Shown: piece after piece, positions 2,538 to 14,153 of the stretch | How positions within the stretch are numbered: the stretch's first letter is position 1 | Layout of the letters: each line of letters opens with the position of its first letter | Virus record (IMG/VR): IMGVR_UViG_3300011242_000002 | Coordinates: 160,001 to 224,000 of that record | Strand: one strand, 5' to 3' | DNA from: a virus | Lineage: Duplodnaviria > Caudoviricetes | Length of the DNA stretch: 64,000 nucleotides | Translations under genes and position numbers: made by a program | Notes under the pieces: generated by a model | Seen by the model: only the letters and a program-made list of their open reading frames with translations | What the model was told of the DNA's origin: nothing | Databases searched by the model: none

Positions 2538-2540
2538 GAT

Positions 2541-2586
2541 CGGCATAAGAGGAAGGGTTAACGCCCCTCCTCTTTTTTTTTTGCCG
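2541..2586 (+). terminator. intrinsic terminator with CGGCATAA 5' flank
   Basis: GAGGAAGGG..CCCCTCCTC followed by a long T run and GCCG. Confidence 0.75.
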
Positions 2587-2588
2587 GC

Positions 2589-2614
2589 CAAACAAGGTCG
2601 TTCTTCGAACGACA
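2589..2614. repeat. 26-bp hairpin element, copy 1 (identical to 12747-12772)
   Basis: CAAACAAGGTCGTTCTTCGAACGACA; stem GTCGTTC/GAACGAC. Confidence 0.9.
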
Positions 2615-2912
2615 AAGATAATTCTAATGAGCTAGTATTACGCTACTTATCTGCTTACTTTTATAGCAAGGTTTGGAACCCTTGCCCCGAGCGTATATTC
2701 GATCGAGTGAATGACAGGAATGAATCTGAACGAAGTGAAGATGAATGAATGGCATGAATGAGGAGAATAGAAGAGCGAGTGAGGAATGAGTCTCTGACGA
2801 ATGACATCTCCAGATACTACTAGGGAAGTGGGGGACCGGGGGCAGTGGTTGGGAATATTCTTTTATGCTGGTTAAATCGTATAGATCATCCTTACACTTA
2901 ACCGGTGAACTT

Positions 2913-3062
2913 ATGCAGGAAATACTTTTATTCAGTAACGGCGTAACCGTATTACCGCCTGTCAGGATCGTTTCAACTCGACTTCATTATATTGCTGCTC
3001 AATTCAGACCCTTTAGAATTGCCAGTGCTCGCTTATATTACATTACACCTAACGGGGGTTAA
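2913..3062 (+). CDS. 49-aa MQEILL-type small protein (module 1)
   Basis: MQEILLFSN...; paralog of 4147-4305; stops 1 nt before the next ATG. Confidence 0.7.
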   Translation: MQEILLFSNGVTVLPPVRIVSTRLHYIAAQFRPFRIASARLYYITPNGG

Positions 3063-10943: not shown

Positions 10944-11120
10944 ACGAGCTCCATTATAAAAAAGTGAATGTAACGTTACGATTCATACAATAACGCCAGC
11001 ACCCGCGGGCGCTACAGCTGAGTAATACTATGTAATAAACTCCTCCTCCTCTTACCCCTGGTTGGTGAGTGGTCGGAGGGTTTATGCCGATCGGGGTATG
11101 TATTGAAATAATTAACAGAA

Positions 11121-11136
11121 CTATATTACTGACTTG
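11121..11136 (+). promoter_or_regulatory. phiKZ-type early promoter
   Basis: CTATATTAC-TGACT-TG. Confidence 0.7.
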
Positions 11137-11172
11137 ATATAACCCGTGAAAATTTAACAGGAGTGCGTTAAC

Positions 11173-11916
11173 ATGTATCAGCAGCTGACCCCGAATTTAT
11201 ACCTCGTCCATAATGCTGACGAGTTTGAAGCTTTACAGGACCGACTTCTCAAAACCGAATTGAACCTGCCTGAACGCCCGGCCAATTACGTTCCTGATGA
11301 ACTGGAGCTGCTGTATCCGCACTGGATAAAGTTGATTGCTGACTACCCACTTCTGGTAACACTCGAAGGCAGTATCTCGACCATGAGAATGGTGCCGGTG
11401 GGAAAGGTCATTGGCAGGATGGGTACTATCAATCAGTTAGACATGCGGCCGGCGTTTAATAAGTTAAAAGAGGCTTGCGTAAACTGTGCACCGTTGAAGC
11501 AACCCCGCATCCTGCTGACCGGCATTACCATCAAAGCGCGCACGGCAGCGGTGAGACGCGGTAATGAGGTTCGTACAACACATAACTCAGACCTCACGGA
11601 GGCGATGGCTAAGCTGGGTATGAACCTTACTCAACTGAAGACCCTGCGTATTCAGTTTGGTGACGGTCGCTTCCACGGCAGTATTGAAATGAAGGAAGAG
11701 ATGATGTTTGTCTCCCAGGTGCGGGATATCACCAACCACATCGCACACGTTACCATGGATGAGAAAACCGGCAAATTTACTGCGGACTACATCTTTAACC
11801 ATTATGACTTTATGAATGCCATGCCGGAGCTGCGCGAGTACCGAGATTTAGCAAAGTGGGAGATTTCCGTCACCACCGCGGTAGAATCGTCACTGGACAG
11901 CAGCAAGAAAAACTAA
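11173..11916 (+). CDS. hypothetical early protein
   Basis: AGGAG RBS, behind early promoter. Confidence 0.75.
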   Translation: MYQQLTPNLYLVHNADEFEALQDRLLKTELNLPERPANYVPDELELLYPHWIKLIADYPLLVTLEGSISTMRMVPVGKVIGRMGTINQLDMRPAFNKLKEACVNCAPLKQPRILLTGITIKARTAAVRRGNEVRTTHNSDLTEAMAKLGMNLTQLKTLRIQFGDGRFHGSIEMKEEMMFVSQVRDITNHIAHVTMDEKTGKFTADYIFNHYDFMNAMPELREYRDLAKWEISVTTAVESSLDSSKKN

Positions 11917-11937
11917 GGACGATTTGGGATTATCATT

Positions 11938-12372
11938 ATGAACGAAAACGATAACATTACAATTGAAGCGCTAAGCTTAGTGACCTTTGACCAGCTGCGG
12001 GCTGAACTCGACGCCAAAGACTGGATGCACGTTAAGATCAATGACCTGTCACTGCGGGGTGAAGACACCCGCTACAGTGACAGCGACACGTTGGTGCTTA
12101 GAACTGCCTACACCGATCACAACAACGCCAACCGCAGCTTTACCTACAAGCCGGGGATTACGTTGGGGTTGGTACGCGGTGCCAACGGCCTGTATGATCT
12201 GAGCGGCATTTACGTTGAACTGCTGTGGTCGCCTAAGCTTAGCTGGTTCCTGGTGCAGATCCATAGCGCCAGTCTTGGCACCCTCGTGTACCGAGGCTTT
12301 ACCGAACCCCATCGCGCCAAGCGGCCGAACGGGATGTCCATTCGTATTAGTCGCATAGGAGTGACCGTATGA
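11938..12372 (+). CDS. hypothetical protein
   Basis: 144 aa, operonic. Confidence 0.7.
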   Translation: MNENDNITIEALSLVTFDQLRAELDAKDWMHVKINDLSLRGEDTRYSDSDTLVLRTAYTDHNNANRSFTYKPGITLGLVRGANGLYDLSGIYVELLWSPKLSWFLVQIHSASLGTLVYRGFTEPHRAKRPNGMSIRISRIGVTV

Positions 12373-12629
12373 CTGTCTTACAACTTCAGCTCAGCGGCAA
12401 GCATGGTTTCGTGCTGACCAAGCCTGAGCGTGCTAACCCCGCAGACATCAAGCTGATGGAAGGTGACCTTCGCCTGCAGGATAACAAGTTGATGCTGGGA
12501 GAGTCTGAACTCGCCACCGTCACCAACCGTAACCTGAAGCTCAACACCTCGATCCTGATGACCGCGGTCGGGGATCTGCGCCGCATTGTGCAGCAGCTGC
12601 GCTACTTTAGCCAAACGCTGCGTGCCTAA
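12369..12629 (+). CDS. hypothetical protein
   Basis: AGGAG RBS, ATGA overlap. Confidence 0.7.
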   Translation: MTVLQLQLSGKHGFVLTKPERANPADIKLMEGDLRLQDNKLMLGESELATVTNRNLKLNTSILMTAVGDLRRIVQQLRYFSQTLRA

Positions 12630-12682
12630 ACGTATTCCACCTGCAGTGTCATAATAACGATAATACTTAGAACGGCCTCGTT

Positions 12683-12729
12683 AGGGTGAGGGGTTTGATA
12701 CCCCCCACACCCTTTTTTTTTTTATGCCG
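12683..12729 (+). terminator. terminator plus TTATGCCG flank
   Basis: AGGGTGAGGGG..CCCCCCACACCCT, T run, ATGCCG. Confidence 0.7.
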
Positions 12730-12746
12730 CCCGCCCGGCGCCCGGT

Positions 12747-12772
12747 CAAACAAGGTCGTTCTTCGAACGACA
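12747..12772. repeat. 26-bp hairpin element, copy 2
   Basis: Identical to 2589-2614. Confidence 0.9.
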
Positions 12773-13004
12773 CCAGGTGTTCTGAATCCTTTGGTTTTTT
12801 CTTTTTTATTTTTATCTGTGGATTCACTGTTGTGGACCTTAGTCCAGTAACAACAGTAATCCTCTCCTACCCTTCTTTTCTTCGGTTAAATCACCCCGTA
12901 TGTATGAAAATACATACGTATATATGTTATGTGTTATTATATTAAATTTACTGTTTTTTAGCTAAATTCAAGCGAATTTTCACTTCGCTGTAATATATAT
13001 AACT

Positions 13005-13135
13005 GGGGGGATAGGGGGGTAGGATGAGGGGGGTAGGATGATTGATGATGGTGGCAGGAGAGAGGGGGTGCAGGGGGAGAGAACCTGGAGGAAGAAGAAA
13101 GAAGGAAGGGGGGAGAAGGAAGGGGGGAAAGGGGG
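13005..13135 (+). repeat. polypurine / G-tract low-complexity region
   Basis: Many G4-G7 runs separated mostly by A/GA; few pyrimidines. Confidence 0.85.
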
Positions 13136-13286
13136 TACCGTCCAAAATCGCCCGAAATTCCGTTAAATAAAACACCTTTCACCATCCCTATAACACCCGC
13201 ACTGCCGACCACCTAAGTTCTTTTTTTTTTGAAACCGTCTTACGAGACACGTGCTTACGAGCGCATACTACAACCAGGAGTTTACC

Positions 13287-14153
13287 ATGAAGAGTTTAAT
13301 TGCCAAGATCATGTCCAACGAAAACCTGCCGGACAGCGACAGCCGGAAAAGCTACAAGCTGATCCCGGTACCGGATAACCACGAGATCGAGTTTCGCCGC
13401 CTTAACCTGAGCATCCCCGAGATGATCTTCCACGCCCTGTTCGGTGACAGCGATCCCATCACCGTCCCTTTGCAGGACAGCGGTAACGTGTACATCCTGG
13501 AGAACGGTAAAACCATCTCCACCTTTGGCAGCGCACCCCCGCCGCATACCGAGCAAGCTATCGCTGAGCAGCCAAAGGACACACCGTTTAATCAGTCGTA
13601 TTTCGATCAGCTGATGCAGCTCTTTGATCGGGTGACCGATCAGGCGCAGCCGGAAGAATATCCGTGGTTCCAGGTAGTGGCCGCCGCCTTGGCAGGTGCC
13701 CCTGCGAGCCTACCCCCAGAGGGGTTATGCGTGCCGTTTGCGATGGCCGATGGCAGGTTGACCGATCGGGCGCGTGCTTTCGTTAAAACGCTGAACAGCG
13801 CGCTGTTGAACAGCAAACCGATGCTGGCGTTGGAAGGGGCGAAACTGATCAAGGCGAACTACGTGTACCTGGTGCAGATTATCCCTGCCCCGTACGTGGA
13901 GAAGTCAGCGTATGAAACCCAGACCGCCAAAGAAGAGTTGCTGAACCGCGACATTTCCCACAGCGTGGTCAACGCCGTGCAGCGGGCGCTGAAGATGTAT
14001 AACCACGGCGCCACGTTTGCGGTACTGACGCCTGCGCTGCGCATTAGTCCTAAAGAGCGAGTCGCAATCACCGCTATCTTTAAGAAATGGCATGACGTAG
14101 ATGTCAAGTTCCGGTTTGTGGATGATCTCTGCACCCTGTTCTATTTTGACTAA
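13287..14153 (+). CDS. hypothetical protein
   Basis: AGGAG RBS before ATG 13287. Confidence 0.75.
   Translation: MKSLIAKIMSNENLPDSDSRKSYKLIPVPDNHEIEFRRLNLSIPEMIFHALFGDSDPITVPLQDSGNVYILENGKTISTFGSAPPPHTEQAIAEQPKDTPFNQSYFDQLMQLFDRVTDQAQPEEYPWFQVVAAALAGAPASLPPEGLCVPFAMADGRLTDRARAFVKTLNSALLNSKPMLALEGAKLIKANYVYLVQIIPAPYVEKSAYETQTAKEELLNRDISHSVVNAVQRALKMYNHGATFAVLTPALRISPKERVAITAIFKKWHDVDVKFRFVDDLCTLFYFD

Follow-up and report, generated by a model that had tools for sequence, protein, structure and literature searches.

A purine-rich, G-run-bearing intergenic element of a jumbo phage and its relation to a conserved family of non-coding modules

The window analysed here is a 64,000-nucleotide (nt) stretch of phage DNA comprising bases 160001–224000 of a 273,301-bp IMG/VR record (IMGVR_UViG_3300011242_000002); positions below are those of the window unless a genome position is named. 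The element under study, copy 2, occupies a 657-nt gap (12630–13286) between the rightward genes 12369–12629 (86 amino acids, aa) and 13287–14153 (288 aa), both uncharacterised yet conserved. The operon upstream of the gap comprises genes 11173–12629, and the flanking genes all point rightward. We read copy 2 as a second, lineage-specific member of a family of non-coding modules in the Erwinia/Salmonella-type jumbo phage clade, the first member being copy 1, located 10 kb upstream in the same window. The proteins of the locus have their best matches in Erwinia phages pEa_SNUABM_48 (hereafter pEa48) and pEa_SNUABM_37 and in Salmonella phage SA002, with weaker matches to Goslar, to the giant phage 201phi2-1, and to the Ea35-70/RAY group, and one neighbouring gene carries a phiKZ internal-head-protein domain. 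Together, the matches to pEa_SNUABM_48/37, SA002, Goslar, and 201phi2-1 and the phiKZ domain identify the source as a chimallivirus-type (nucleus-forming) jumbo phage. Contigs and genomes used for comparison carry L-numbers: L003 is pEa48, L033 is SA002, L012 is a JGI contig, and L005–L007 and L013–L017 are Logan contigs.

Copy 2 consists of a series of discrete parts (Table 1). A preliminary description of the gap had listed a terminator, a 26-mer, a T-rich tract, hairpins, an AT-rich block, and a mostly purine strand, and each was recovered within a few bases of its reported position. The terminator is an ordinary member of the genome's set of hairpins followed by TTTATGCCG (fold −18 kcal/mol; z −2.9 versus shuffles), and in strain L012 an A-to-T change perfects its stem. 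The 26-mer is found at 12747–12772 and at 2589, with no further exact match in the 64-kb window or in the whole 273-kb genome (0 expected by chance); the stretch actually shared by the two sites extends to 31 bp, and its hairpin is predicted to fold at −8.5 kcal/mol (z −2.7). The A+T content reaches 78% over 12900–13004, and the AT box occurs once in the genome; a related motif, AAAATACATA, is shared with the copy-1 element of SA002. The T10 run that closes the C/A-rich tail was considered as a terminator and rejected, since no hairpin precedes it (fold 0 kcal/mol). The segment 13239–13286, which recurs in relatives, is an old conserved 3′ border of the spacer. The CTTACGAG boxes in it are candidates for an operator, or for a promoter or leader element specific to gene 13287.

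Table 1. Features of copy 2, of copy 1, and of the corresponding sites in relatives (L-numbers precede positions outside the window)
Feature	Position	Strand	Remarks
Copy 1	2538–2913	+	Terminator, 31-bp head, hairpin, GAATGA-repeat purine tract, exact 17-mer GGGGGACCGGGGGCAGT, TTTATGC, AAATCGTATAG
Intrinsic terminator of upstream operon	12682–12729	+	GC hairpin 12684–12712, T11 12713–12723, ATGCCG
GC-rich block CCCGCCCGGCGCCCGG before head hairpin	12730–12746	+	Like blocks precede the head in L022, pEa48, SA002, and L034
31-bp head	12742–12772	+	30/31 identical to 2584–2614; 7-bp stem, 3-nt loop (12755–12771)
T-rich tract	12774–12818	+	TTTTTTA × 2.7 (Tandem Repeats Finder, TRF)
Two-tier hairpin H1	12820–12862	+	GGATT/AATCC, ACTGTTGT/ACAACAGT, GGAC/GUCC; z −4.6
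Pyrimidine tract, then GGTTAAATC	12863–12896	+	9-mer GGTTAAATC also at 2870 in copy 1; 41% to L022
Hairpin H2 (12897–12918) overlapping AT-rich box (12907–12932)	12897–12932	+	H2 z −5.4
AT-rich stretch holding hairpin H3 (12971–12989)	12933–13004	+	H3 z −3.1
G-run purine tract	13005–13135	+	Eight G5–G6 runs, two 14-nt tandem duplications, 49-nt pure purine run 13087–13135
C/A-rich tail ending in T10 (13221–13230)	13136–13230	+	9 differences per 97 nt between strains
Two CTTACGAG boxes (13239, 13254) and GCATAC, then ribosome-binding site of gene 13287–14153	13239–13286	+	Unique in genome
CTTACGAG boxes in relatives	L003:6826–6885; L004:2915–2960; L037:6915–6955 (minus)		GCATAC next
Small-ORF (open reading frame) sites in relatives	L004:2582–2910; L037:7227–6950		Versus window 12630–13286

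The purine-rich tract of copy 2 (131 nt) is 58% G and 3% C and opens with G6-N3-G6. The many G runs previously reported for it are present, but their reported range of G4–G7 narrows to G5–G6, with no run of exactly four or seven. The tract is the genome-wide maximum for G-run density (eight runs of at least four G per 150 nt), for G4Hunter score (1.68 over 130 nt; genome next-best 0.94, standard deviation 0.176), for purine fraction (0.88), and for the length of a pure-purine run (49 nt; next 27 nt). The purine fraction of copy 1 is 71%, and both elements are among the genome's top five windows. Runs of five or more G are depleted genome-wide on this strand (137 observed versus ~282 expected), and 5 of the 20 runs of six or more G fall inside the tract's 130 nt. 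The tract also holds the genome maximum of GGA motifs (11 per 130 nt), including AGGAUGA and CAGGAGA units.

The tract cannot self-fold. The canonical G-quadruplex (G4) motif (four runs of at least three G, N1–7 loops) has no match on the + strand anywhere in the genome; the tract lacks it because the loops between its G runs are 3, 8, 30, 4, 30, 8, and 3 nt; going by the extreme G4Hunter score, long-loop or intermolecular G4s may form. An H-DNA/triplex mirror repeat was rejected, the best arms of the tract being 10 nt and being equalled in 27 of 200 shuffles; purine mirror symmetry is also absent from copy 1 and from the SA002 core. The RNA fold of the whole spacer (z −2.9) is driven by pairing between the purine and pyrimidine tracts in many registers.

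Comparison with relatives reveals that copy 1 belongs to a conserved family. A G-run cluster search of pEa48 returned exactly one cluster (G5 × 3) in 294 kb, and it lies in the gap homologous to copy 1. Specifically, the pEa48 element comprises a GC-rich block and small hairpin, an AT-rich stretch, GAATGA repeats, the 17-mer GGGGGACCGGGGGCAGT, and TTTATGC with GTATAG. The copy-1 element is also present in SA002 and in the IMG/VR and metagenome types L034/L037/L096 and L036/L125, once per relative and always 3′ of the homologue of gene 1785–2537, so that synteny is kept; blastn located it in three cultured phages only (SA002, pEa_SNUABM_48, and pEa_SNUABM_37). The core of the element is 97–100% identical over 120 nt between SA002 (L033:2316–2435) and pEa48 (L003:1610–1730), whereas the coding DNA on both sides is 45–55% identical between the same phages. 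Judged from these alignments, the copy-1 core is an ultra-conserved non-coding block, kept more strictly than the genes around it. A canonical hairpin + TTATGC terminator closes the element in SA002, pEa48, and the L034 type, while a bidirectional terminator and then a convergent head-protein gene come after it in the L036/L037 type. The L034/L036 type has a convergent gene next to the element, which there forms a stand-alone, terminator-bounded unit and not a 5′ untranslated region (UTR).

A 48-aa MSF ORF lies on the minus strand inside copy 1 (2661–2807), and the cores of SA002 and L034 contain shorter ORFs of the same kind (MSF...). These ORFs look like by-products of the TCATTC repeats, and coding is made less likely by the fact that SA002 and pEa48 are 100% identical here in nucleotides.

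The head hairpin is the clearest structural signal of the family. Among eight sequences from five phage types, 96% of cells pair, compensatory substitutions (G-C to A-U; U-A to C-G) affect two of the seven base pairs, and none of 500 shuffles reaches the covariation score; the loops vary (TTC, TTT, TCT, TGT, TGC). The idea that the minus strand of this hairpin forms the stable, DNA-specific C-GAA-G triloop was considered and rejected, since the minus-strand loop varies (GAA, AAA, AGA, ACA, GCA, or a 7-nt loop). For five copy-1 elements, RNAalifold predicts outer helices (UACUAUGCA/UGCUUAUGUA and UUGCCCC/GGGGGCA) around an unpaired purine interior, with a few compensatory pairs, which come from the copy of this phage.

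Copy 2 has the head of the module, comprising the terminator, the GC-rich block, and the GGTC-stem–loop hairpin. The preliminary description had called the two elements copies, with the order of parts in copy 2 matching 2541–2870; the 31-mer, a terminator before it, a purine-rich tract after it, GGTTAAATC, and T runs do correspond, but nothing further does, and the term copy holds for the 31-bp head and not for the body. An nhmmer profile of the relatives' elements finds copy 1 at E 3.6e-15. Global alignments of copy 2 to the SA002 element, to the L034 element, and to copy 1 are collinear (z 3.2–4.2 versus block shuffles), and the short word AGGAGAGAGG is shared with the relatives' core.

At the copy-2 site itself, the homologous spacer is 530–700 nt in pEa48, SA002, seven Logan contigs, and the distant IMG/VR L037 type. 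In every relative examined it holds two small ORFs, of ~40 aa (...KAMRTPNP...) and ~46 aa (...VVEMQVRKAQM...), with a terminator between them, and two to three CTTACGAG boxes stand directly before the gene-13287 homologue (pEa48, SA002, L024, L025, L037). This phage keeps the relatives' first terminator and the CTTACGAG boxes, and both small ORFs are absent from the site and from the whole genome (best tblastn E 0.03). In these comparisons, both small ORFs have been lost from this lineage and from one diverged relative, and the hairpin/G-tract cassette sits there instead. The copy-1 module family, the replacement of small ORFs at the copy-2 site, and the compensatory changes in the head hairpin are new.

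The cassette of hairpins, AT-rich block, and G tract was found only in near-identical strains (L012, L005–L007, and L013–L017) and in L022/L023, a diverged relative with 83% identity to this phage in the upstream protein. Public data that contain this phage are runs SRR1749885, SRR15526730, and SRR35949881 and JGI 3300011643; the L022-type spacer comes from run SRR35248291. The cassette is absent from the site in every more distant relative. A search through shorter homologues of the downstream gene for the G-tract half of an L022-type spacer returned only a contig of the small-ORF type; the 26-mer, H1, and G-tract words had no match in viral, metagenome, and 185k prokaryote collections, from which near relatives may be missing; and a search of IMG/VR by protein patterns found no closer relatives.

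Within the cassette, conservation is uneven. H1 is 91% identical to its L022 counterpart, with all differences at unpaired positions, and the three upstream genes are 64–79% identical; the AT box is nearly identical in L022, and H2 is shortened there. Between this phage and strain L012, 1 of the 131 nt of the tract differs, against 17 of 162 nt in the flanks (Fisher p 0.0003). The lengths of the G runs are identical across three independent assemblies, and T-run lengths vary between strains. H3 lies in the most variable patch between strains (8 differences), and an equally stable hairpin is present at the same place in L012. It is retained through the 8 substitutions partly by G-U pairs, which only the sense-strand RNA can form.

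The one clear promoter class of the genome comprises an AT-rich upstream part, the core CTAYATTAC, and N5-GTG. Its 28 sites (in the window, for example, 11101–11140, 17402, 23642, and 31581) all lie on the + strand and score at least 15 bits. Conservation of the class extends to pEa48, SA002, and the IMG/VR relatives. Extended AT-rich promoters of the virion RNA polymerase (RNAP) have been described for phiKZ-related phages (PMC5312081), and the CTAYATTAC class fits them and probably represents the early promoters of the virion RNAP. The nearest such promoter to copy 2 is at 11101, before the operon that ends at terminator 12682–12729. No sigma-70-like promoter is present on the + strand of the element, other promoter classes of this phage being undefined. 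Further candidates were rejected: AACCCGTATG is a common ribosome-site/start context, and TAAATAA and ATACATAC either show no pattern or are unique to the element. AAATCGTATAG, one site of which closes copy 1, occurs four times in the genome (window 2874–2884; genome 15537(−), 83423(−), and 266386(+)), 35–120 nt upstream of a gene start, and is a candidate second promoter class on the strength of this placement.

Terminators in this genome consist of a GC hairpin followed by TTTATGCCG(A) and are often bidirectional (GGCATAAA-hairpin-TTTATGCC). TTTATGCY occurs at 56 sites genome-wide, mostly right after GC hairpins (for example, 9486/9523, 2862, and 12721). The conserved ATGCC after the T run is unnecessary for intrinsic termination and might double as a late promoter of the TATG type. 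Late promoters of this type have been described for phiKZ.

We tentatively favour the reading that copy 2, like the other modules, is a rightward-transcribed non-coding unit that acts as an RNA or a leader, a reading that we place somewhat short of probable and to which we attach no particular job. Each module begins just after an operon terminator with the head, that is, a GC-rich block and a conserved small hairpin, and continues via T/AT-rich DNA with element-specific boxes to a strongly purine-rich sense-strand tract with G runs. It would be transcribed rightward like all neighbouring genes and would act single-stranded, as RNA. The hairpins would be RNA structures, and the unfolded purine/G-run tract would serve as an open platform for a protein, a ribosome, or another nucleic acid or, alternatively, would form G-rich structures. 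No terminator intervenes between the tract and gene 13287, so that copy 2 most probably belongs to a long leader of this gene, perhaps as a processed piece. It would have taken the place of the two small proteins that relatives encode there, the second of which would be co-transcribed with the downstream gene.

In all elements, the purine strand is the strand of the flanking rightward genes, and the element starts right after an intrinsic terminator. We prefer a role at the RNA level because of this sense orientation, the bounding terminators, the retention of hairpins by compensatory or G-U-compatible changes, and conservation that acts on nucleotides and not on a reading frame. The extreme purine/pyrimidine asymmetry of the strands likewise leads us to expect a single-strand function and not a double-strand protein-binding array.

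Several results weigh against a transcribed module that acts as RNA, or against the place of copy 2 in the family. No CTAYATTAC promoter is present in copy 1, copy 2, or the relatives' elements, the best score in copy 2 being 8.2 bits, in the AT-box region, on a matrix on which real sites score at least 15. The putative RNA 12885–13236 folds no better than shuffles (z 0.1). Rfam 15 gives no match to the window at gathering score, and a permissive search (E up to 5) returned only a chance-level match on the terminator (E 0.35). All stems except H3 are purely Watson–Crick and would form equally in DNA. The L022 contig stops before the G tract, and the conservation of the tract is suggestive and not decisive, as it is seen among near-identical strains that are mosaics with long identical blocks. 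With the nhmmer profile that finds copy 1, the head of copy 2 is the second-best match in the genome, at E 0.15, and its body stays unaligned; the core of the family (GCCCCGGAGCG...GAATGA repeats...GGGGGACCGGGGGCAGT) is not recovered in copy 2. On sequence comparison, copy 2 is thus best described as a second module that follows the same plan and has the head in common, homology of its body to the copy-1 core being unproven.

A first alternative is that the gap is fast-evolving filler, in which the small ORFs were lost and the spacer was refilled by slippage-grown simple sequence and leftover regulatory hairpins, the G tract being functionless. The architecture of the tract is compatible with this view: two 14-nt tandem duplications form its framework, and the unit TAGGATGAGGGG is similar to TAGGGTGAGGGG, an arm of the terminator. 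The spacer is also a replacement hot spot between lineages, T-run lengths differ between strains, and conservation of the tract is confined to the near-identical mosaic strains. Homopolymers mutate fast, however, and the G-run lengths of the tract are the same in all three independent assemblies; the tract varies significantly less than either flank, G runs are depleted elsewhere in the genome, and the 5′ half of the cassette exceeds the neighbouring genes in conservation to the diverged relative. We regard filler as unlikely, with a chance that is still to be reckoned with.

A second alternative, put forward in the preliminary description, is an R-loop-primed origin, in which a transcript from in or before the AT-rich block stays hybridised across the tract and is used as a primer. 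A G-rich purine non-template strand downstream of an AT-rich block is the textbook make-up of an R-loop-forming site, and purine-RNA/pyrimidine-DNA hybrids are the most stable hybrid type. Copy 2 has this make-up, with the G6-N3-G6 start and the 78% A+T block directly upstream, and no other site in the 273 kb is as strong; these genomes have few G-run clusters, which are concentrated in these elements, as the single cluster of pEa48 illustrates. We know of no origin mapped for this phage family, and a literature search found none.

The composition on which the origin reading was founded is therefore confirmed, and is more extreme than had been stated, but nothing specific to an origin or a terminus accompanies it. 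In particular, the GC-skew inflection that had been suggested as a check is not seen: cumulative skew has no turn at 172–173 kb and tracks gene strand. Iterons and DnaA-box-type repeats are absent, the repeats present being the two 14-nt tandem duplications and the T-run repeats, and no promoter was found for transcription into the tract. More distant relatives all lack the cassette at the locus; none of the neighbours is a replication gene, the genes nearby being head-protein genes and others that are uncharacterised; this genome has two elements where relatives have one; and the conserved G5ACCG5 of copy 1 is predicted to pair with upstream UUGCCCC in RNA. We consider an R-loop-primed origin at copy 2 improbable. 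A broader version, in which the purine-rich, G-run, terminator-bounded modules are the replication start sites of the clade through a purine-RNA/pyrimidine-DNA hybrid, with one conserved copy in relatives and a G-run-expanded second copy in this phage, seems to us more doubtful still.

A pac or genome-terminus signal, also suggested in the preliminary description, is very unlikely. The module is non-coding and single- or low-copy, and contigs of nine independent assemblies, some of 7–36 kb, end inside the spacer (the starts of L005, L006, and L007 at their position 1 and the ends of L012–L017). The nine breaks, however, are all different (12749, 12769, 12982, 12991, 13013, 13046, 13114, 13130, and 13256) and scatter over 500 nt, at the repeated 31-mer or at G/T runs; such scatter indicates assembly or sequencing trouble and not one physical end. 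The k-mer length of the Logan assembly is presumably 31, which equals the length of the 31-mer head. A ~36-kb contig passes straight through copy 1. The ends of the record overlap by 78 bp only, an artefact of assembling a circular or permuted genome and not a pair of true ends, and phiKZ-type phages are regarded as headful packagers. The spacer acts as an assembly trap, and the same trap may hide the region in other metagenomic jumbo-phage genomes.

That the gap hides a small protein gene (the 21-aa ORF 12901–12966, the 73-aa ORF 12724–12945, or minus-strand proline/serine-rich ORFs) is barely credible, in line with the earlier claim that it holds no credible ORF. Such ORFs exist mechanically, and ACCCCGTATG resembles the common start context AACCCGTATG, but none of the six mechanical ORFs has a PHROG match, in L022 a stop codon cuts off the 21-aa ORF after a single codon and the frame of the 73-aa ORF shifts despite conserved DNA, strain differences in the minus-strand ORFs lack synonymous bias and include frame-breaking indels, and there is no Shine–Dalgarno sequence. 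The remaining probability we leave to something not considered here.

The elements resemble several known systems. With the R-loop-associated ColE1 RNA II, the mitochondrial light-strand promoter–conserved sequence block II (LSP–CSB II) region, and T4 ori(uvsY)/ori(34) they share G runs and a purine-rich non-template strand 3′ of an AT-rich segment, hairpins upstream, and a transcribed orientation; unlike at R-loop-primed origins, there is here no skew signal and no conservation of the site in relatives, and the likeness is one of sequence alone. ONT-cappable-seq has mapped intergenic and 5′UTR-derived small RNAs (sRNAs) in 201phi2-1 and phiKZ, along with terminator motifs of conserved sequence in 201phi2-1, and a conserved sRNA is also reported upstream of phiKZ gp182 (PMC11512511), a precedent that we count in favour of an RNA-level role. 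Those sRNAs are alike in being short non-coding units between conserved terminators, some positionally conserved across genera, but they are shorter than 250 nt with mapped 5′ and 3′ ends (PMC11512511), whereas the module is ~450–600 nt, purine-rich, largely unfolded, and predicted from DNA. CsrB/RsmB protein-sponge RNAs are alike in having many GGA motifs, which here would lie in single-stranded RNA; in contrast to them, the module has no Rfam match, its GGA motifs are not in hairpin loops, and the relatives' core consists mainly of GAAUGA repeats. The 49-nt homopurine/homopyrimidine run with short mirror repeats (arms of 8–10 nt) recalls H-DNA, but its mirror symmetry is at shuffle level and is not shared by copy 1 or the SA002 core.

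To our knowledge, the non-coding DNA of giant nucleus-forming phages is almost unmapped, and no origin or packaging site has been mapped. What had looked like an isolated oddity becomes a defined family, with a 120-nt core that is essentially invariant between two cultured phages in which the adjacent genes are beyond DNA alignment. Whether it acts as an RNA platform, a leader, or an R-loop element, the module is under unusually strong selection. In this phage a further, G-run-expanded version has displaced two otherwise conserved small proteins, and the swap of small proteins for a non-coding cassette upstream of the gene with the CTTACGAG boxes suggests that this gene may be controlled in either of two interchangeable ways. 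If true, a replication start at these modules would give the family its first proposed origin type; the idea could be tested in cultured SA002 and pEa_SNUABM_48.

Two further observations concern the surroundings of the elements. In comparison with the L036/L037 clade, where the convergent head-protein gene directly adjoins the copy-1 element, the segment 2992–9475 holds ~6.5 kb of extra genes, including one for a 1322-aa protein, so that an inserted block is flanked by the two 31-mers. Upstream of copy 2, the phiKZ_IP-like gene is ~10% different from its counterpart in L012 (9600–10900), and the next 1.1 kb (11200–12300) are identical, which marks a sharp mosaic boundary between this phage and that strain.

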